Below are positions 30,984 through 41,809 of a stretch of DNA of 64,000 nt, piece by piece. Numbering within the stretch: the stretch's first letter is position 1; the number at the start of each line of letters is the position of its first letter. Origin of the DNA: a phage. The translations under genes and the position numbers were made by a program. The stretch lies in the NCBI GenBank assembly GCA_036611895.1, contig GCA_036611895.1_4766.1; one strand, 5' to 3'. The notes beneath the pieces were generated by a model. That model saw only the letters and a program-made list of their open reading frames with translations. It made no database searches and was not told the origin of the DNA.

Positions 30984-31036
30984 CGCTTATTCTCCTAAAT
31001 ATGATTAATAACCAAAAGCTGCGGAGCAGCTATTAC

Positions 31037-33913: not shown

Positions 33914-34047
33914 GGTTATTTCTCCTATTTAAATACATATCTAACTATTCAAGAATAAAAAATAGAAGCCCTCCTAATGGAGGACTCCCAGTTCTACTAA
34001 TGCACCATAGGTTAATAGTGCAAACATGGTTATTGAGATAAGCCAGT

Positions 34048-34179
34048 TCATTTGAACGCATCCGGGTGATTGAAGGTAACAATCTTACGTACTGGTTCAG
34101 ATGTCTTTTTCTTAGCAGCCAGACGCTCTTTCATCTTCTGTACGTCTTCTTTGGTTCCCATGATTAATGACTTACGCAT
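34048..34179 (-). CDS. Lys-rich micro-protein (43 aa)
   Basis: ATG with GGAG RBS 9 nt upstream; below the track cutoff. Confidence 0.35.
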   Translation of the reverse strand: MRKSLIMGTKEDVQKMKERLAAKKKTSEPVRKIVTFNHPDAFK

Positions 34180-34346
34180 GATTTAGTACTCCACATAAAG
34201 TTAAAAGGTTTACTGTTACGTACAATTCTTACAACCATTTGATAGCCATTGAGTTGTACAACACCATAGTGTCGTTTCTGTACACCAGTGTGATACCTAC
34301 GAAAGATACACTCTTCAATGGCATCTTCTATGTTAGTGAATATCAC
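34164..34346 (-). CDS. hypothetical protein
   Basis: 60-aa ORF. Confidence 0.3.
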   Translation of the reverse strand: MIFTNIEDAIEECIFRRYHTGVQKRHYGVVQLNGYQMVVRIVRNSKPFNFMWSTKSCVSH

Positions 34347-34561
34347 TGGTTCCTCTTTGCAAACTCTTCGGCTTCCTTAGCCCAGAGTTGCTTACGATCT
34401 TCTTTAGCTACGATGGAAGCAAACAGGCATTTAACGAATACAACTGGTAACTTACAAATAAGTACCAGCTTAGTAATTACCCACTTGGCTCCATTGAGAA
34501 TGTAACCACGTAGGTGATAAAGCACATAACAGAGTATTACAAACGCAATGAAGTCCAACAT
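34343..34561 (-). CDS. small membrane protein
   Basis: 72 aa with an N-terminal TM helix. Confidence 0.4.
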   Translation of the reverse strand: MLDFIAFVILCYVLYHLRGYILNGAKWVITKLVLICKLPVVFVKCLFASIVAKEDRKQLWAKEAEEFAKRNQ

Positions 34562-34563
34562 AG

Positions 34564-34863
34564 TTAGTCCTTACAGTTAATGAATTGAGAATGTAATTCA
34601 CCATTACAGATATTCATACCATCTTCATAGTATGGCTCACCTAGTTCTTCATAGTAGGCTTTGTCATCAGGATGTGGTCTAACCACCAGGTCAAATGCAG
34701 GTAATTGACTGCCACCATCAATCACGTTGAGTAAGCTGAATATAGCTCCCTCAATACGTTCAGTAGTATCTCCTCCATCTGGAGTATTTGCCCAGTAATG
34801 TACAATTTCTTTAGCATTAAGTAGGAATTTATTCCTTACTTCTTCCTCAGTAAGTGCTCTCAT
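34564..34863 (-). CDS. hypothetical protein
   Basis: 99-aa ORF. Confidence 0.4.
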   Translation of the reverse strand: MRALTEEEVRNKFLLNAKEIVHYWANTPDGGDTTERIEGAIFSLLNVIDGGSQLPAFDLVVRPHPDDKAYYEELGEPYYEDGMNICNGELHSQFINCKD

Positions 34864-34967
34864 TTAGTACATATCCTCTTCTAATATAAATCTATATCTA
34901 TCTGGTTACTGTTTCAGTACCCTTCGTCTAAAGATACTCAAAAAGTAGAAATAGCTTATCGTCTAGT

Positions 34968-34996
34968 TAAAAATAAAAGACTCCCCGAAGGGAGTC
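34968..34996 (-). terminator. rho-independent terminator
   Basis: Plus strand AAAAATAAAAGACTCCC-CGAA-GGGAGTCT. Confidence 0.6.
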
Positions 34997-35006
34997 TATT
35001 GGTTGA

Positions 35007-35480
35007 TTAGAAAGTCAGTTTACGAGCATATTTATTCTCGTCTGCTGGGATGTCAGCAGCCTCTGCTTTCACACGACGAAGTTGAACTTGCAGGTTAATG
35101 ATACCTTCTTCACCTGGTTCCAGGTTCTGAGCATATGCGATTAACTGTTCCAGCAAGTCGTTCTGTGCACAACGCATAGCACGGAAGTCAGCATTGCTGC
35201 TATTGGTAGGCAGCGGTTCCTGAGTATCCAGTGGAATACCAGTAGGCAGTGAGATGAATTTCTCATCATCAGAGCCTTCATTAGCCACATAACCAATGTT
35301 CAGCCAGAACTGAGCTTTTGGTTTGTCAGTTTTAGCAGTAGAAGCAGTATCGTTAGACTGACCGAAAGTGAATTTTTGAATAGACATTTTGTACTCTCCA
35401 GATTTATGTGATTTACGGGTGAACTCGTCGGTGAGAACACCCAAACAAAAGGATAAAAGTTCAATGATTAGTGGATGCAT
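35007..35480 (-). CDS. hypothetical protein
   Basis: 157-aa ORF; real start probably the internal Met of MSIQKFTF. Confidence 0.4.
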
Positions 35481-35519
35481 TTACATCATCCATAAGACGC
35501 GGAGCGTCTTGGTTTTGGC

Positions 35520-35789
35520 TTACCAATACATAGCTGCTGTGCCTTCTTCGGCAAAGAACTCATCTAAGCTGTTTTGATTTTCTTTACGGAACTGACGACG
35601 CAGCTTACGGATTTGTTTCTTGGTAGGTTTAGCAGGGAAACTGTAGTCAACAACCAGAGGCATTCTGGTTTCTTCACATACTTCAGAGAACCATAACTGC
35701 CACTCTGCTGCAGCAGGGATGTGTTGCTGCTTACCAAAAACCGGTTGCTTAGTACCACCAACATAGAACAGGTCAGTATTAAATTGCAT
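35520..35789 (-). CDS. hypothetical protein
   Basis: 89-aa ORF with a basic C-terminal stretch. Confidence 0.4.
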   Translation of the reverse strand: MQFNTDLFYVGGTKQPVFGKQQHIPAAAEWQLWFSEVCEETRMPLVVDYSFPAKPTKKQIRKLRRQFRKENQNSLDEFFAEEGTAAMYW

Positions 35790-35842
35790 GAGTAAACTCC
35801 TGAATTAAAATGATATCCAATAGAAGCGGAGCTTCTTGGTTT

Positions 35843-36214
35843 TTAAGGAATGTAGGACAACCAGGTTAATAGTTCTGCTTTAGCTTTCTGATACTTACTG
35901 TCTACAGTTTCATCTGAGATATCTATGTCTGATTCTCCGTAATGATGGATGTCAGACTGATATTGCTCTTGCTGGCGAATGGCTTCCTCGAATCTATTTA
36001 ATGCTTCAATAGGTTCTTGTTTTTGCCATACCCATAAAGCACCTGCAAGAGGTAGATTGTCATCTTTGTACCAACGTGGTCCTATTCCAGATACACACTT
36101 TAATTTACTATCTTCAGTAAGAATGAATCTTCCTGGTGAGTGAAATTTTCCTACTAGTTCTGTTCCTACAGGAACATCTTTAGTTAATGATTTTACGCAA
36201 ATGTACTTAGCCAT
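35843..36214 (-). CDS. hypothetical protein
   Basis: 123-aa ORF. Confidence 0.4.
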   Translation of the reverse strand: MAKYICVKSLTKDVPVGTELVGKFHSPGRFILTEDSKLKCVSGIGPRWYKDDNLPLAGALWVWQKQEPIEALNRFEEAIRQQEQYQSDIHHYGESDIDISDETVDSKYQKAKAELLTWLSYIP

Positions 36215-36265
36215 TATCTATCTCCAAAGTAGATAGTTATCTACTTTTGACTATCTATCTAATGT

Positions 36266-36295
36266 TCAAAACAGGAGACTCCGAAGAGTCTCCTT
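36266..36295 (-). terminator. rho-independent terminator
   Basis: Plus strand CAAAACAGGAGACTC-CGAA-GAGTCTCCT; 9-bp stem then a T-rich tail in minus sense. Confidence 0.5.
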
Positions 36296-36301
36296 GATGA
36301 C

Positions 36302-36625
36302 TTAGTCTTTAGTCAGGATGTCAATTACTTTGGAATATTCTGCGTTATAGATCCGAGCGTTCTCTGAATCCTTGCAGAATTCCTCGATACTTTTCTTACG
36401 CAGAGTCTCAGTCATAGCTGTTTCCTCTGCCAGTTTATTAACAAAGGTATGCATTTCTAATTTAGTACGAATGGCTTGTTTCTCTGCCATAGTACTAACA
36501 TATGAATTAAGCATACCTACTGCTTTAGTTGCTGTGCTGAATGTATCTGCAACAGTAGTAGCAGCTGAGTTAACAGTACCAAGTAAAGTTCCTGCGGTCA
36601 TACGTACAGTAGCTTGAGTAGTCAT
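36302..36625 (-). CDS. hypothetical protein
   Basis: 107-aa ORF with GGAG RBS. Confidence 0.45.
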   Translation of the reverse strand: MTTQATVRMTAGTLLGTVNSAATTVADTFSTATKAVGMLNSYVSTMAEKQAIRTKLEMHTFVNKLAEETAMTETLRKKSIEEFCKDSENARIYNAEYSKVIDILTKD

Positions 36626-36859
36626 GATGATAGCTCCAATAGTTGATGATAGGACGACATGTCCATAACATGCGGAGCATGTGTAACGTGTAAGGTGGGG
36701 TAGGGTAGTGGCTACACCGTCAACATACCGGGGGGGCTAGTTGAGTGTAAGGGTGTAGCCCCAGCCACACCACTATGGCTGTACATAGCTATCACAATTT
36801 TGACATGCAAAAATATTATAGGCACTATCTCTATAAGCAGATAACTTTGAGGTACTAAC

Positions 36860-36985
36860 ATGAAAGATGGATGGGGTAACTACAATCCTACAGACCCTGA
36901 GAACTGGCTTCACTTTATTGCATGGGCTTGCGCTGTAGGATTCATAAGTATTGTGCTCTTATCACTGGTTCTATCTTATCTGTAA
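36860..36985 (+). CDS. plus-strand micro-ORF encoding a single-TM peptide (41 aa)
   Basis: GAGG RBS 7 nt before the ATG; MKDGWGNYNPTDPENWLHFIAWACAVGFISIVLLSLVLSYL; TTGACA at 36798-36803 upstream; lies antisense within the minus-strand early block. Confidence 0.3.
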   Translation: MKDGWGNYNPTDPENWLHFIAWACAVGFISIVLLSLVLSYL

Positions 36986-37012
36986 ATACTATGGGGGATA
37001 GCTATTTATCCC

Positions 37013-37147
37013 CTATTCATCATAGCGTTTAATACCTAAAACCTTGTATAGCTTACCCTTTACAAGCAATGGTCCACCTACTTCTACGAAAGCTAGGCTG
37101 TGTACTATCACTGGTTCAAGTAAGCCTTTTACTGTTATATACCACAT
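37013..37147 (-). CDS. micro-protein (44 aa)
   Basis: ATG with AAGGA RBS; below the track cutoff. Confidence 0.3.
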   Translation of the reverse strand: MWYITVKGLLEPVIVHSLAFVEVGGPLLVKGKLYKVLGIKRYDE

Positions 37148-37183
37148 ATTAATCCTTATAAGCAGTTAAATAGGAGGAAGTGG

Positions 37184-37588
37184 TTAGTAGCTATCTGTGA
37201 TACCAAAGGACATATGATAACCACCTGTGTTTACATCCCAGGGTTGCGACAAATTAATATCCCAAGGAAGTGTCTTTCCAGATTCAAGTATTCTTATAGA
37301 CCTGAAGGAGTTACCCTCTTTTATCATACTGGTTTTTACTGTTACCGGTAGGAAGATATGGAAGTAATCCCCTTCTGGTGCAAGGTAAGTATCTCCTTCA
37401 TTGAGGGTAACTATCTTTGCTTTGCTGTTAGTGAGAAGTCTATGCCCCTGTGCAAAATCTGCTAACTCTCCTGGTTCCATTATTAGTGTAGAACTCCCAT
37501 AGGTCATAATATGGATGATTGCTTTTTCTGGTTCAGAGGAATAGTGCAGTAAATCTGTACCATTCATCCCTAAGAGTTTAACGTTCAT
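37184..37588 (-). CDS. early paralog-family protein, divergent member
   Basis: Weak match to the family core (IIHIMTYGSSTLIMEPGELADFAQGHRLL). Confidence 0.4.
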   Translation of the reverse strand: MNVKLLGMNGTDLLHYSSEPEKAIIHIMTYGSSTLIMEPGELADFAQGHRLLTNSKAKIVTLNEGDTYLAPEGDYFHIFLPVTVKTSMIKEGNSFRSIRILESGKTLPWDINLSQPWDVNTGGYHMSFGITDSY

Positions 37589-37591
37589 ACT

Positions 37592-37876
37592 TCAGTACCT
37601 TTCCTTATAGATGGGGGTGCTATCATCGAATGATAGGATGTACTTGTCTGTATTAAGATGCCAAGGACTAAAGCTACCCTGCCAGGACATAGGTGTTTCT
37701 GGTTCAAGTAGATGTACTACCGAATTCTTATTGTATAGGAAGAGTAATCCTTGTATCTCATGTAGAGACTGTTCATCTGGAACCAAGATAAGTACATCAG
37801 CATTCAGGTCAGCTATTTCTTTATGGTGGATGTAATTTTCCCCATTAGGCTCTGGATAAATTTTACTGATAACCAT
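37592..37876 (-). CDS. early paralog-family protein
   Basis: Core ILVPDEQSLHEIQGLLFL...HLLEP. Confidence 0.5.
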   Translation of the reverse strand: MVISKIYPEPNGENYIHHKEIADLNADVLILVPDEQSLHEIQGLLFLYNKNSVVHLLEPETPMSWQGSFSPWHLNTDKYILSFDDSTPIYKERY

Positions 37877-38196
37877 TAGAGACTCTCGTCGCTAGATAAA
37901 TATGAGGTAGAAGGGTAGAGGGTAATAAGTCTACCGGTAAGGGTAGTAACTACCGTAGGTTCAGCAGTTGATAAGATATATACTCGTGCAAACTCAGATA
38001 TCTCAACTGATGTATCTATCTTAGTGAATGTAATGGGTATGCCTAACATTAGACATGTACCTATGAACTCATCTGCTTCTTCATTTGGTTCATATAGGAT
38101 AGTAGTTCCATCCATCTTACCATTTAAACAATCTTGTTTAGTTACTTTGCTGCGATAGCAACTTGTACTTAGAGCAACTAATGAGTAGAAGTGCAT
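37876..38196 (-). CDS. early paralog-family protein, divergent member
   Basis: Core TILYEPNEEADEFIGTCLML. Confidence 0.4.
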   Translation of the reverse strand: MHFYSLVALSTSCYRSKVTKQDCLNGKMDGTTILYEPNEEADEFIGTCLMLGIPITFTKIDTSVEISEFARVYILSTAEPTVVTTLTGRLITLYPSTSYLSSDESL

Positions 38197-38199
38197 GGC

Positions 38200-38589
38200 T
38201 TACTTCCTTACATAGTAATAATGGTATTCCTCATTCTCATGACTACTATCCCATTGGTAATCATCAGATACCAACATGAAAGGCAGGGCGTCATATGCAC
38301 TGCTATCGGCATAGACGGAAGGAGGAATGATACATACAACCTTACGATCATTACCTGCTAAGAATAGTTGACCTCTTACTTCATGGTAGTCCTCTAGAGT
38401 AGGAACCAGGATTACATGCTGAGGATTGCTATCTATCACTTCTTCTAAAGTGAAGTCTGTTGTGTACAAGGATTCCCCTTTAATAAAACTGGGGGCGGTC
38501 AGTATGAATTTCATGATGGATTTTCCTTCCTTTAGGAATAGGTCTGAAGTAAACGGAAAGTGTTTTATTAAAGAGGTTATGTTCAACAA
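38200..38589 (-). CDS. early paralog-family protein
   Basis: Core ILVPTLEDYHEVRGQLFL...CIIPP; likely true start is the Met of MKFILTAPSF at 38514. Confidence 0.5.
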   Translation of the reverse strand: MLNITSLIKHFPFTSDLFLKEGKSIMKFILTAPSFIKGESLYTTDFTLEEVIDSNPQHVILVPTLEDYHEVRGQLFLAGNDRKVVCIIPPSVYADSSAYDALPFMLVSDDYQWDSSHENEEYHYYYVRK

Positions 38590-38875
38590 TCATTTCCCAG
38601 CCTGGTACTTTATAGAACCTGACTCCTGGGAAGAATGTTTCGAAGTCTGCATACTCAGTAAGGTCATACACAACTGGTTCAGTAAGTATACGCGTATTGA
38701 TTTGCAGATTACTTAAGAAAAATGAACCAACTATCTCGTGGGATTCTTCGCAGTCTGGTAGGAAGACTATTTGTTTGGATAGGAACTTACTAACTATCTC
38801 TGGTTCCCCTAGGTAGTATGGTTCCTGCTTACGTAGTACACCAGTAATATCAATATCAAAAGCGTAGATGCTCAT
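38480..38875 (-). CDS. early paralog-family protein
   Basis: Core VFLPDCEESHEIVGSFFL...ILTEP. Confidence 0.5.
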   Translation of the reverse strand: MSIYAFDIDITGVLRKQEPYYLGEPEIVSKFLSKQIVFLPDCEESHEIVGSFFLSNLQINTRILTEPVVYDLTEYADFETFFPGVRFYKVPGWEMIVEHNLFNKTLSVYFRPIPKGRKIHHEIHTDRPQFY

Positions 38876-39075
38876 ATTTGCATACCTCCTGAAAAAGAAA
38901 TGGGGTAGAGCCTCTCGACTCTACCCCTTACCGTTTTCTATCACGGGTCAGTTCATCACCCTAGATACATGTGTATCGTTAGCCTACTAGGTAGGAAAGG
39001 AGCCGGGCAACCCTGACTGTAGAAGTTATTAACTCTTTACGAGTACCGCCACTGTCTACTAGGCGGCATGACTAA

Positions 39076-39366
39076 TCACATCGTCACCGTCATCCGAACA
39101 CTGTCTTTGCTTCGCCTGACGGAGACACTATGAGGTAATTTTGTGAAGAACACAAGAGCTGATGGCCCCTTTTCTAAAGAGTAAGTTTCTCTTGGTTCTA
39201 AGATTTTAATGCCCGGACGATTCTCTAAAAGCATCATCCCAGCTAATTCATGGTAGGTATCTTCATTATGGGTAATAATGATATCACCTGAAAGAAAACC
39301 AGCCTTAGTGTGGTCTAGCTCCCTGTATTCATCTTTAGAGCCTGAGACTTTCATATAGATTCTCAA
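39076..39366 (-). CDS. early paralog-family protein
   Basis: Core IIITHNEDTYHELAGMMLL...KILEP; first gene of the minus-strand block. Confidence 0.5.
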   Translation of the reverse strand: MRIYMKVSGSKDEYRELDHTKAGFLSGDIIITHNEDTYHELAGMMLLENRPGIKILEPRETYSLEKGPSALVFFTKLPHSVSVRRSKDSVRMTVTM

Positions 39367-39537
39367 AGGTTACTCCTTTTGGGAATAGGGTCATCGGAAC
39401 AATACATACTATTTAGTATCATGAACTTTTTCTATATCATGACTAAAGTGTAACTGTATGGTATCGTTTCTTCAAGGGGTATCTCACCCCAAGAAAAGAA
39501 TCTTCTTTAATAGACATAACTTTGTAGCGAGATAAGT

Positions 39538-40227
39538 ATGAGTGAACTAACTAAGCAGCAGATTATTAATGCCTTACCTGCTAACTTCAAAAACAGTGTT
39601 ACCCAGGAGTTGGTAGACACGATTAACAACATAACCCAAGACCAACTGGTTGCTGAGTCCTTTCGTGAAAACTTTATCTCCTACTCTGGTGTAATGAAGG
39701 AAGGTAAGTTTAAGACACAGGACTACATGAATGCAGTTCAGTATGTGACTTACAAACATATGGGCTACTCAAATAAGGAAGCCTACTTTAAGACGTTCCC
39801 TAATCGACAAGCAGAACTTGTTGCACGAGGAACCAGTGAGAAAGATATTAGTGCTTATGTATCTGCCTACCACAGGGGTAAGTTAGTTAACCTCATCATG
39901 GAACAAAGTTTGGTTCCAGTGTGGATTGTGAACCAAGACAATTATCAGAAGGCTATCAACGTTCAGGTTGAACTGATGACTACAGCAGCAAGTGAGAAGG
40001 TAAGATGTGATGCAGCTAACTCTATCCTTACTCACTTAGCTAAACCAAAAGATCAGGTAACAAATATCAATCTGGACTTAAGAGAGAACTCCGGATTAAC
40101 TGACCTCAAGGCAACACTTGCTGCATTAGCTGAACAGCAGATTAATGCAATCAATAGTGGTGTACCTACCAAAGAGGTTGCTGGTTCTAAACTAGTACGT
40201 GCAGATGAGGACATTACAGATGTCTGA
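39538..40227 (+). CDS. hypothetical protein (possible small terminase subunit)
   Basis: 229-aa ORF immediately upstream of and overlapping the large terminase. Confidence 0.35.
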   Translation: MSELTKQQIINALPANFKNSVTQELVDTINNITQDQLVAESFRENFISYSGVMKEGKFKTQDYMNAVQYVTYKHMGYSNKEAYFKTFPNRQAELVARGTSEKDISAYVSAYHRGKLVNLIMEQSLVPVWIVNQDNYQKAINVQVELMTTAASEKVRCDAANSILTHLAKPKDQVTNINLDLRENSGLTDLKATLAALAEQQINAINSGVPTKEVAGSKLVRADEDITDV

Positions 40228-41809
40228 GTTAATTAAACAGGAACTGGATGAGTGGCTAGACCAGGTGGATTACTCCCACCTTAATTCTTCTAACTACGTT
40301 CCTAGTCAGTTTGCTCTTACCTTTGCCAACTTTATTAAGTTGGTTAATGGCAAAGAGGGTGAGTCCAACAAAACACCTCCAGTTCACTTGAAGATGCTGG
40401 ATAAGATGATTAGTCCTAACCAGTATGTAGTTAACCTGTGCTTCCGTGGTGCAGGTAAGACTGCTGTGTTCATGGAATACTTTACTTTATTCCTGGCAGT
40501 GTTTGGTCACTTACCAAGCCTGGGTAAAGTAGAAGGAATGATTTACGTATCAGACTCAATGGATAACGGTGCTAAGTCTGCACGTAAGAACATTGAGTTT
40601 CGCTACAAGAATAGTGAGTTCCTTCAGCAATGGATACCTGAAGCTACCTTTACGGATAACCTATTAGAGTTTCGTAATGTAGAAGGGCATCGACTTGGTG
40701 TTAAGTTGTTTGGTGCTAAGACAGGTCTTCGTGGTACGAAGATATATGGTAAACGTCCAACACTTTGTGTACTGGATGACTTGATTAGTGATGGTGATGC
40801 TAACTCCAAGACTAGCATGGAAGCTATTAAGGATACCGTCTATAAAGGTGTGAACCATGCACTTGACCCAACCCGTCGTAAAGTAATCTTCAATGGTACT
40901 CCCTTTAATAAGGAAGATATTATCATTGAAGCTGTTGAGTCTGGTGCATGGGATGTCAACGTATGGCCTGTATGTGAGAAGTTCCCCTGTAGTAGGGAAG
41001 AATTTCAGGGTGCATGGGATGATCGTTTCTCTTACGATTACATTAAAGCCCAATATGACATGGCAGTTAAGACTGGTAAGTTGGCTGGCTTCTATCAGGA
41101 ACTTATGCTCCGTATTAGCTCCGAAGATGAGAGACTGGTTCAGGATAGTGAAATAAGGTGGTATAGCAGACAACAACTGTTAAGGATGAAGTCCTGCTAC
41201 AACTATTATATTACAACCGACTTTGCTACTTCGGAGAAACAGACCAGTGACTACAGTGTCATATCAGTTTGGGCTTATAGTTCTAATGGAGATTGGTTCT
41301 GGGTTGATGGTGTGGCTAATCGTCAGCTTATGGATAAAAACTTTGATGACCTGTTCCGTCTGGTTCAAGAATACCAACCCCAAAATGTTGGAGTCGAAAT
41401 CACAGGACAGCAGGGTGGATTCATCTCACTCCTTCAGAAAGAAATGATTAACCGTAATGTCTTCTTTAACTTTGCATCCTCTGAGGGTGGTAAGCCAGGC
41501 ATACGTCCTGTAACCTCTAAGCTGTCACGCTTTAACCTGGTAGTTCCATGGTTCAAAGCTGGTAAGATGTACTTCCCAGAAGAGTTGAGAGATTCAACTA
41601 TTATGGGTCTGTTCATGGGTCAGATTAAACTAGCTACCATTAATGGAATCAAAGGTAAGGATGACTGTATTGATACTATCTCTATGCTGGGTTATCTCAA
41701 TCCTTGGAAACCACAAGCAGGTATGACTATGGTGGATAACAAGGGCGACCCAATGTGGGATGATGAAGAAGAAGATAGTGTTAACCCATTACGTTCGTAC
41801 ATTGTGTGA
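40220..41809 (+). CDS. terL: terminase large subunit
   Basis: Walker A FRGAGKTAV; C-terminal nuclease-like acidic motifs; track ORF starts at a GTG at 40199, but the ATG at 40220 has a GAGGA RBS. Confidence 0.8.
   Translation: MSELIKQELDEWLDQVDYSHLNSSNYVPSQFALTFANFIKLVNGKEGESNKTPPVHLKMLDKMISPNQYVVNLCFRGAGKTAVFMEYFTLFLAVFGHLPSLGKVEGMIYVSDSMDNGAKSARKNIEFRYKNSEFLQQWIPEATFTDNLLEFRNVEGHRLGVKLFGAKTGLRGTKIYGKRPTLCVLDDLISDGDANSKTSMEAIKDTVYKGVNHALDPTRRKVIFNGTPFNKEDIIIEAVESGAWDVNVWPVCEKFPCSREEFQGAWDDRFSYDYIKAQYDMAVKTGKLAGFYQELMLRISSEDERLVQDSEIRWYSRQQLLRMKSCYNYYITTDFATSEKQTSDYSVISVWAYSSNGDWFWVDGVANRQLMDKNFDDLFRLVQEYQPQNVGVEITGQQGGFISLLQKEMINRNVFFNFASSEGGKPGIRPVTSKLSRFNLVVPWFKAGKMYFPEELRDSTIMGLFMGQIKLATINGIKGKDDCIDTISMLGYLNPWKPQAGMTMVDNKGDPMWDDEEEDSVNPLRSYIV

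Follow-up and report, generated by a model that had tools for sequence, protein, structure and literature searches.

In the genome of an N4-like coliphage, six small genes lying side by side encode diverged members of a single uncharacterised protein family, to which N4 gp70 and gp71 belong. The stretch of DNA that was analysed (64,000 nucleotides, referred to below as the window) is a Gamaleyavirus genome (G7C-like, N4-like coliphage), and the array, whose genes are here called A to F (Table 1), is a tandem, anciently diverged expansion of the gp70/gp71 family in this genus. This identity and the anatomy of the array can be stated with high confidence. Six PHROGs annotated as hypothetical and the long-orphan N4 proteins gp70 and gp71 are thus joined into one family, the fold of which is apparently new. 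The family spans several genera and two subfamilies of Schitoviridae, with hosts among Escherichia, Shigella, Klebsiella, Achromobacter, and Pseudomonas, and the right-end compartment in which it resides is the main site of gene turnover in the otherwise conserved, therapy-relevant Gamaleyavirus genomes.

Table 1. Features of the array and its surroundings (positions in the window)
Feature	Position	Strand	Remarks
vRNAP promoter hairpin 4	31017-31031		N4-type, template strand
vRNAP promoter hairpin 3	35494-35510		N4-type, template strand
vRNAP promoter hairpin 2	35822-35836		N4-type, template strand
N4 gp1 orthologue	36302-36625	minus	66% identity; true first early gene
Direct terminal repeat of virion DNA	36367-36768	.	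single copy in the circularised assembly; physical left end at 36768, reading to lower coordinates
vRNAP promoter hairpin 1	36668-36682	plus	N4 P1 orthologue; template strand; ~94 nt from left end
Terminator-like hairpin	36994-37013	minus	after the gp72-like ORF
gp72-like ORF	37013-37147	minus	44 aa; N4 gp72 orthologue; outside the family; last in operon
A	37184-37588	minus	134 aa; chimeric, with aa 1-~101 from an A-type domain (phrog_12606) and aa ~93-129 from the C-terminal part of a B2-type member (phrog_16338)
B	37592-37876	minus	94 aa; family member; start overlaps C stop
C	37876-38196	minus	106 aa; divergent family member, G7C gp71.2; motif YEPNEEADEFIGTCLML
D	38200-38514	minus	104 aa; family member, G7C gp71.1; most widespread subtype
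E	38480-38875	minus	131 aa; orthologue of N4 gp71; phrog_9160
F-E spacer	38876-39075	minus	conserved, structured, non-coding
Intrinsic-terminator-like hairpin and T-run	38902-38927	minus	end of F-E spacer, just before E RBS
F	39076-39366	minus	96 aa; orthologue of N4 gp70; phrog_7213
Inverted-repeat element TTCTTGGGGTgagatACCCCTTGAAGAA	39468-39495	minus	divergent gp69/gp70 intergenic region; conserved as far as N4
gp69-like late gene	39538-40227	plus	divergent from array
Large terminase, gp68-like, late gene	40199-41809	plus	divergent from array

Relationship among the six proteins

The preliminary description of this DNA had reported six minus-strand ORFs (94-134 aa, 37184-39366) sharing a core, clear in four of them and divergent in two, and had read them as a tandem array of diverged paralogues belonging to no named family. 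All six ORFs are present as described, the quoted motifs were found, and the similarity goes far beyond chance according to BLASTP, PHROG, profile-profile, and HMM comparisons; the divergent pair is A and C. Genes E-D-C-B-A-gp72 form a tightly packed operon (the final 35 nt of E cover the start of D) that is separated by 245 bp from the right terminal repeat. F (gp70) stands apart, downstream of a conserved intergenic element common to the divergent terminase operon. An ATG at 38514 is the more likely start of D, over a TTG that would give 129 aa (38200-38589), and F starts at a TTG, which is supported by AGGAG spacing and by the N-terminus of N4 gp70 (MRLFY vs. MRIYM). The proteins are small, soluble, and mostly acidic, most of them moderately so (net charge -5 to -10), with F neutral to basic.

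On sequence grounds, the kinship of B, D, E, and F is clear. When the six proteins were compared pairwise by BLASTP, E-values reached down to 6e-7 (B-D), followed by 6e-5 (B-F), 5e-4 (D-E), and 5e-3 (E-F). Every member matches its own PHROG strongly and those of its paralogues weakly, as when D and F match phrog_16338 (8e-4 and 6e-3, respectively), and profile-profile comparison of orthologue alignments gave probabilities of 90% for B-D, 85% for B-F, and 57% for D-E. B and D are thereby tied to E and F by BLAST, PHROG, and hhalign. Moreover, an HMM built from B/D/E/F-type sequences detects N4 gp71 (1.5e-8) and gp70 (6.5e-5), neither of which was in the training set, and iterative profile recruitment, through which A enters, was clean, without spurious ORFs. 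The proposed superfamily unites PHROGs 7213, 9160, 11661, 16338, 12606, and 12099, to none of which a function has been assigned. It is narrow: among 1.84 billion proteins it has just 20 clusters at the 50% identity level. A profile search of the 90%-clustered database returned close orthologues only and was less informative than the search of 50% representatives. No nucleotide-level repeats linking the paralogues were found, which implies that the duplications are old.

None of the members gave a hit above threshold in Pfam, NCBIfam, or PADLOC. The only Pfam match, A to Cupin_3 (PF05899), was rejected because its score, 11.9 bits (E = 0.18), falls below the gathering threshold of 23.5; the only sub-threshold NCBIfam match was that of F to a helicase model (0.09); PADLOC returned zero hits; and a sequence-profile search of the PDB gave noise only, with nothing at E < 0.3.

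C is the weakest member, which formal recruitment never reached and which is linked to the family only transitively. It nevertheless aligns in register with the family profile at 14.6 bits, compared with a maximum of 6.6 bits in 2000 shuffles, and a C-type HMM in turn matches, at 2e-8, an undoubted member of the family from a distant relative. The other top matches of this HMM are all A2-type, A-type, or other small array proteins, or family sequences that came from the representative search. The C-type protein gp5 of Moo19 retains HEFIG and scores 19 bits. A, judging from its sequence, is in this phage a recombinant chimera of A-type and B2-type parts.

The core motif consists of a hydrophobic strand, P/H, x2-3, E, x2, [HND]-E, hydrophobic, x, G, x2, hydrophobic, L, and, approximately ten residues further on, hydrophobic, L, [EP]-P. 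Its H, E, and G are invariant in the B/D/E/F set and relaxed in A (D-F...G) and C (D-E...G). Because H-E is replaced by N-E, D-F, or D-E in some members, the motif argues against catalysis. The AlphaFold model of D is confident (pLDDT 87); among BFVD models, those for B-, B2-, and gp71-type proteins match it at TM 0.6-0.8. The model of B is mediocre (pLDDT 71) and has the same order of secondary structures. The models predict a compact alpha/beta fold comprising an N-terminal beta-hairpin, a strand, a long helix with H-E-x-x-G, a strand with E/P-P, and a C-terminal beta-sheet. This predicted fold appears to be new and without a solved structural relative: the D model matched no solved structure, its matches being confined to proteins from other Schitoviridae that are uncharacterised, with a single genome often contributing several, and Foldseek with the B model returned nothing at E < 0.5.

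Relatives and turnover at the right end

N4 gp70, gp71, and gp72 are orthologues of F (32% identity over 102 aa), E (27% over 116 aa), and the 44-aa ORF (68%), respectively, and they share with them order, orientation, and place between gp69 and the right terminal repeat. Rightward genes at this site are the syntenic setting of the family, and the array of this phage occupies it; Moo19, Achromobacter phage JWAlpha, and a distant relative from a metagenome have the same right-end layout. The number of family members varies, in line with the proposal that copy number be compared among related phages: N4 has two (its array is gp70-gp71-gp72 only), G7C four, this phage six, one of them a chimera, and other phages up to seven. 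F, E, and D were found in every relative examined, and the distal gene sets differ among phages. Duplication and divergence inserted D and C, both fixed throughout the genus, together with a distal set that varies (A, A2, B, B2, and others) and has been reshuffled by deletion and recombination; the A::B2 chimera is one product of this process. The rapid divergence that had been suggested is borne out by an orthologue dN/dS of 0.15-0.27, as against 0.026 for the neighbouring gp69. These values were computed between orthologues rather than paralogues because synonymous sites are saturated among paralogues at 20-30% amino-acid identity.

Two non-coding elements accompany the genes. The F-E spacer, recognisable in N4 and L014, has a structure with z = -3.75, in which 11 of the 54 pairs carry compensatory changes. 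No Rfam family corresponds to it (a scan of 36300-39700 gave only a chance miRNA match). The inverted-repeat element upstream of F occurs only once in the window.

Part of this picture has precedents. The G7C GenBank record already notes the similarity of its gp70 and gp71 to the N4 proteins, and the KP8 paper describes a right-end group of short ORFs, variable in number, as a general feature of N4-like phages. The ten right-end short ORFs of KP8 are transcribed rightward and lie in the same genomic compartment as the array; at least four proteins from somewhere in the KP8 genome resemble the D model in structure. The paralogy of gp70, gp71, and gp71.1/gp71.2 was not found stated in the literature and database records searched, and PHROGs keeps six families. 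Thus, prior literature on the right-end short ORFs concerns their existence only, whereas the present analysis adds paralogy with a common predicted fold, a spacer RNA that is conserved, and turnover driven by recombination.

Genome ends and time of expression

The array had been placed at the head of the early block and at the first-transcribed end of the genome, and neither placement stands. The terminus at 36768 was positioned by homology to experimentally mapped ends (IME11, Mimir124/G7C, and N4): terminal reads of IME11 (PMC3896407) match positions 36768 and 36367, and the Mimir124 terminal repeat, 403 bp long, corresponds to 36768-36366. The repeat thus sits between the array (right end) and the early block (left end) and divides the array from gp1, which puts the array at the right end of virion DNA, the last to enter the cell. 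It lies beside the early block on the map only because the assembly is circularised. In circularised assemblies of phages with terminal repeats, neighbours of the early block may therefore represent the last-injected end, and timing based on adjacency can mislead.

Promoters point in the same direction. N4 vRNAP promoters have a 5-7 bp stem, a 3-nt purine-centred loop, and -10G/-9C/-8G, and they are confined to the left end, which enters first; entry is complete only after middle transcription (PMC4496689). When the template strand was scanned for the pattern xxxGC-GGA-GCxxx followed by T[T/A]TGG, as in N4 P1/P2, four hairpins were found, all of them downstream of the array (31.0-36.7 kb), and none lies on the template strand between 36683 and 39700. 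The array therefore has neither the upstream hairpin promoter nor the left-end location that mark early genes of the N4 type. The lack of vRNAP promoters and the position on last-entering DNA indicate that the array is likely expressed in the middle or late phase and not in the first wave. As for promoter class, the N4-conserved TWCACTTTAG upstream of F is not enriched elsewhere in the window. A single sigma-70-like match upstream of F (39590-39562) falls inside the gp69 coding sequence, which makes its conservation uninformative.

Possible roles of the array proteins

On balance, the best explanation as a whole is that the array is an expansion of N4 gp70/gp71 that provides accessory binders in the middle or late phase. 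The array proteins would form a non-structural, individually dispensable accessory set, in which each paralogue would present, on a conserved scaffold, a fast-changing surface to a different host or competing-phage target; expression in the middle or late phase would rely on N4 RNAPII or host RNA polymerase. The array proteins are not among the entries of the Moo19 virion-protein table, and dispensability and flux are suggested by the presence of only four genes in G7C, by the degradation of C to a pseudogene in L006, and by the variable distal sets. Nonetheless, the proximal members F, E, and D are ubiquitous among the relatives and may have a conserved, non-accessory role, and the constant site beside the terminase genes and the terminus suits a packaging or end-related role equally well.

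A binder or counter-defence role in particular can be proposed only tentatively, and the evidence speaks neither for nor against the host-takeover or anti-defence functions that had been suggested. Accessory and counter-defence clusters of lytic phages (the T7 0.3/Ocr region; Silas et al., bioRxiv 10.1101/2023.04.06.535777) resemble the array in that they are small, mostly acidic, dispensable, fast-diverging, variable in copy number, and located at a genome end. However, the array lies on the last-entering rather than the first-entering DNA, and its proteins show no similarity to known anti-defence or DNA-mimic proteins (Ocr, Ard, Acr, Tad, Gad, and others) in Pfam, NCBIfam, PADLOC, the PDB profile search, or Foldseek with the B model. 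The screen of Silas et al. (bioRxiv 10.1101/2023.04.06.535777) makes no mention of N4-like phages, and no statement on the array genes was found in the literature on N4 gp70/71/72, on transcriptomes of N4-like coliphages, or on Schitoviridae in anti-defence screens. A broader proposal, rather doubtful at present, is that the gp70/gp71 superfamily constitutes Schitoviridae-wide, diversifying effectors of the middle/late phase with an apparently new fold, the dose of which the conserved structured F-E RNA and its terminator would control. Such effectors might, for instance, neutralise sensors of abortive infection that respond to terminase, portal, or capsid proteins, or they might keep competing phages out. 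If the array proteins are indeed late-acting counter-defence or competition factors, they would represent a new class of such factors, and the variable distal genes would help explain differences in host range among near-identical phages.

Alternatively, the family might act late as accessory factors of the adjacent terminase (gp68/gp69) in packaging, concatemer-end processing, or handling of the terminal repeat. N4, G7C-like phages, and JWAlpha all keep the family genes between the gp69/gp68 operon and the right terminal repeat (for Moo19 and the contig of L014 this is probable, the sequence not being seen across the gp69 end or the mapped terminus), the array and the terminase operon have in common a promoter region with a conserved hairpin element, and the constancy of F, E, and D fits as well. 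Yet a genome has anywhere from 2 to 7 copies, pseudogenes and chimeras occur, dN/dS is 6-10 times the gp69 value, and the mostly acidic proteins bear no similarity to known packaging proteins or DNA-binding folds, which renders this role unlikely.

A modulating role in the phage life cycle or in phage transcription, with the proteins acting for instance as co- or anti-factors to host RNA polymerase, N4 RNAPII, or N4SSB and the F-E spacer serving as a dose-setting attenuator, is improbable. Some N4 transcription factors still await assignment, such as 'protein X' at middle promoters (PMC4496689), and the conserved, terminator-bearing spacer with its covariation does precede E. However, a factor for middle transcription needs to be synthesised early, whereas the array genes arrive last; core regulators also rarely vary in copy number, and no DNA- or RNA-binding signature was found.

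Host proteins are the targets of some early proteins of N4, gp8 among them. N4 early genes (gp1, gp2, and others, with vRNAP hairpin promoters) are small and, in the circular map, co-oriented with the array, which lies directly upstream of them and whose proteins are likewise small, fast-evolving, and variable in copy number. The array might accordingly be viewed as the first-transcribed early block, made by the injected vRNAP and encoding immediate host-takeover or anti-defence proteins. This is very improbable, given that the array, unlike the N4 early genes, has no hairpin promoter upstream or within, lies across the physical terminus from gp1 and from all four hairpins, and shows no homology to any early protein; in addition, the array ends in a terminator, and an ORF on the other strand lies between it and the repeat.

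Finally, a coincidental motif in ORFs that are unrelated or partly not genes, to which the low pairwise identities and the failure of C and the N-terminal part of A in simple pairwise tests could point, has a negligible probability and is ruled out by the independent detection of N4 gp70/71 with the family HMM, the clean recruitment, the shuffle control with the reciprocal C-type match, the structural matches of the D model, and the purifying selection acting on every member.

Relationships among the array proteins

Nucleotide comparison places the region at ~85% identity with about 59 genomes of Gamaleyavirus (G7C-like), which are N4-like members of the Schitoviridae. All six ORFs of the array (A-F) are present with the sizes given in the preliminary description, and all lie on the minus strand (table); the start of D is more likely the ATG at 38514, which yields a protein as long (104 aa) as its orthologues and G7C gp71.1.

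The core that these ORFs were said to share is borne out by four lines of evidence, according to which B, D, E, and F are related to one another. Pairwise BLASTP among the six array proteins gives significant values for B-D (6e-7), B-F (6e-5), D-E (5e-4), and E-F (5e-3), and every array protein founds its own PHROG (function not assigned) yet cross-matches the PHROGs of its paralogues. Profile-profile comparison of orthologue alignments, built from ten related loci, gives probabilities of 90% for B-D, 85% for B-F, and 57% for D-E. Finally, a B/D/E/F-type HMM retrieves N4 gp71 at 1.5e-8 and gp70 at 6.5e-5, neither of which was used in building it. The motif residues H, E, and G are invariant across the B/D/E/F alignment.

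The divergent members A and C also belong to the family. A local profile search, iterated at a database size of 1e5, recruited A and the related A2 types, as well as N4 gp70 and further genes of a distant relative, and none of the ~550 spurious ORFs in its database; C was not recruited by this search. Aligned in register, C scores 14.6 bits (vs. a maximum of 6.6 bits in 2000 self-shuffles), and its Moo19 orthologue, gp5, retains the canonical HEFIG and scores 19 bits. Moreover, a C-type HMM matches a clear family member of a distant contig (L014) at 2e-8, and its next matches are all A2-type, A-type, or other small array proteins, or family sequences from the representative search. The A protein of the window is itself a recombinant: residues 1-~101 align to the A-type proteins of U1G and PhAPEC7, and the tail, LESGKTLPWDINLSQPWDVNTGGYHMSFGI, corresponds to the C-terminal portion of the B2 type (108 aa). 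Most simply, it would have arisen by a deletion joining an A gene to a downstream B2 gene in a PhAPEC7-like gene order.

The AlphaFold model of D, for which a 25-sequence alignment was used, is confident (pLDDT 87, pTM 0.81). In it, a beta-hairpin and a short helix precede a strand (ILV) and a long helix with EDYHEVRGQLFL; a further strand (VVC), then PP, and a C-terminal sheet complete the model. Among predicted viral structures, 24 match it with a probability of 0.7 or higher, and all of these belong to uncharacterised Schitoviridae proteins or nameless entries; the named ones come from phages of Escherichia, Klebsiella (four in KP8), Achromobacter, and Pseudomonas (four in Zuri). When 1.84 billion representative proteins were searched exhaustively, only 20 family clusters emerged.

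Features of the array and its surroundings in the window
Feature	Position	Strand	Remarks
vRNAP early-promoter hairpin 4	31017-31031	plus	GCGGAGC type
vRNAP early-promoter hairpin 3	35494-35510	plus	GCGGAGC type
vRNAP early-promoter hairpin 2	35822-35836	plus	same hairpin (GAAGC-GGA-GCTTC) as N4 P2
N4 gp1 orthologue	36302-36625		beyond the array; 66% identity
Direct terminal repeat	36367-36768		402 bp, single copy; holds P1 and first ~two thirds of gp1
vRNAP early-promoter hairpin 1	36668-36682	plus	N4 P1 counterpart, flanks nearly the same
Second terminator-like hairpin	36994-37013		closes the array set
A	37184-37588	minus	
B	37592-37876	minus	
C	37876-38196	minus	
D	38200-38589	minus	TTG start
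E	38480-38875	minus	
F-E spacer	38876-39075	minus-strand sense	non-coding, 200 nt
F	39076-39366	minus	
Inverted repeat TTCTTGGGGTgagatACCCCTTGAAGAA	39468-39495		divergent gp69/gp70 intergenic region; single occurrence in window
gp69-like gene, then large terminase	from 39538	plus	

Position relative to the genome terminus

The early promoters of N4 are hairpins on the template strand, with -10G/-9C/-8G, whose stem is 5-7 bp long and whose 3-nt loop is purine-centred (PMC4496689). The GCGGAGC heptamer occurs exactly four times in the window, each time on the plus strand (the template for minus-strand genes), and each copy forms an N4-type hairpin (xxxGC-GGA-GCxxx) with T[T/A]TGG after it, like N4 P1 and P2. 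No hairpin of the GCGGAGC type occurs between 36683 and 39700. High-frequency reads from the termini of IME11 (PMC3896407) match window positions 36768 (minus) and 36367 (plus). The 403-bp terminal repeat of Mimir124 maps onto the same 402 bp, with a left end consistent with the Sanger-verified end of G7C (PMC11640937), and N4 position 1 aligns there as well.

As judged from these alignments, the physical terminus falls between the array and the early promoters, and in the virion the array is therefore located at the right end, after gp69. The order runs from the left end through P1, gp1, early/middle genes, late genes, gp69, F-E-D-C-B-A-gp72, and the terminal repeat to the right end. Because the window holds only one repeat copy, it derives from a circularised assembly running across the physical genome ends, which creates a false adjacency between the array and the early block. 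Thus, the array does not lie at the head of that block, or at a first-transcribed end, as had been proposed. In N4, the left end enters the cell first, and entry is completed only once the machinery for middle transcription exists; the array is therefore on the last-arriving DNA.

A comparable arrangement is known in related phages. The right end of N4 carries three rightward genes, of which gp70 is the orthologue of F, gp71 of E, and gp72 of a 44-aa ORF (37013-37147), and the G7C GenBank record already lists gp70, gp71, gp71.1 (D), and gp71.2 (C), with the note 'contains terminal repeat' after them. Moo19, a metagenomic relative (seven genes), and Achromobacter phage JWAlpha, from another subfamily, share the layout, in which a gp70-like gene and a spacer (bearing an annotated terminator in JWAlpha) precede several small genes.

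Non-coding elements of the locus

The intergenic region upstream of F is common to the divergent terminase operon, and its inverted repeat, kept almost base for base in N4 despite diverged surroundings, has a possible regulatory or packaging-related role. The F-E spacer is nearly invariant among aligned Gamaleyavirus loci, whereas the flanking proteins are ~80% identical, and it is recognisable in N4 and one distant relative. It folds stably (z = -3.75), with compensatory changes at 11 of 54 predicted pairs, has no Rfam family, and ends in an intrinsic terminator (hairpin and T-run) directly before the E RBS; it may act as a small RNA or as an attenuator. The genes E, D, C, B, A, and gp72 are tightly packed (overlaps or gaps of 3 to ~36 nt).

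A 41-aa plus-strand ORF (36860-36985), antisense to the array, has a GAGG RBS and one predicted membrane helix; it lies in the gap separating the gp72-like gene from the terminal repeat and is 77-88% conserved in two related loci (L002 and L006). Mimir124 is without the whole segment, gp72 included. Within 34000-40000, sigma-70-like matches are depleted (4 vs. 15.9 +/- 4.9 expected from shuffles) and terminator-like hairpins enriched (10 vs. 3.4 expected).

Gene-content variation and possible function

Copy number was compared across related phages: F-E-D-C is fixed among the Gamaleyavirus loci examined, whereas the distal part comprises B-A, A2-B2, A2-A, or nothing (G7C); some relatives have an extra HExxH protein there, together with an '81-type' member. 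The paralogues have no nucleotide similarity, so the duplications are old. The dN/dS values of array orthologues (0.15-0.27 vs. 0.026 for gp69) indicate that the genes are real and under selection, and at the protein level they evolve 6-10 times faster than their structural neighbour gp69.

No signal peptide or membrane segment was seen in the array proteins by inspection; A to E have pI values of 4.5-5.5, and F has one of 8.0. The H-E pair is unlikely to be catalytic, since several members carry N-E, N-Q, D-F, or D-E instead. No array protein appears in the Moo19 virion protein table, and neither the function nor the expression of N4 gp70-72 is addressed in the literature searched. This evidence best fits non-structural accessory proteins of a lineage-specific family: a conserved scaffold might present diversifying surfaces that bind different targets, which may belong to host defence, to other host functions, or to competing phages, and the proteins would be produced during the middle or late phase. 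The main rival is a role in packaging or end processing, for which the constant proximity of the array to the terminase and the terminus speaks, but which accords poorly with copy-number flux and fast evolution. The earlier interpretation of the array is thus partly supported: the family stands, whereas its position and timing do not. Variable accessory gene clusters at phage genome ends are already known, and what is new is the family-level grouping.

In U1G (locus L021, 97-411) and PhAPEC7 (L022, 597-911), the extra HExxH protein (104 aa, LIHEVNHF) lies between C and A; it is outside the family and missing from the window. Two split genes, C in L006 (5319-5645; 52 + 45 aa) and gp1 in the pSb-1 record (L009, 6650-6972; 55 + 50 aa), are pseudogenes or sequencing errors. 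The array region of Klebsiella phage vB_Kpl_K57alpha1.2 (OY979416.1, 33624-36013) is annotated as 'DNA primase' and 'exonuclease', labels that are without supporting homology and look mis-annotated.
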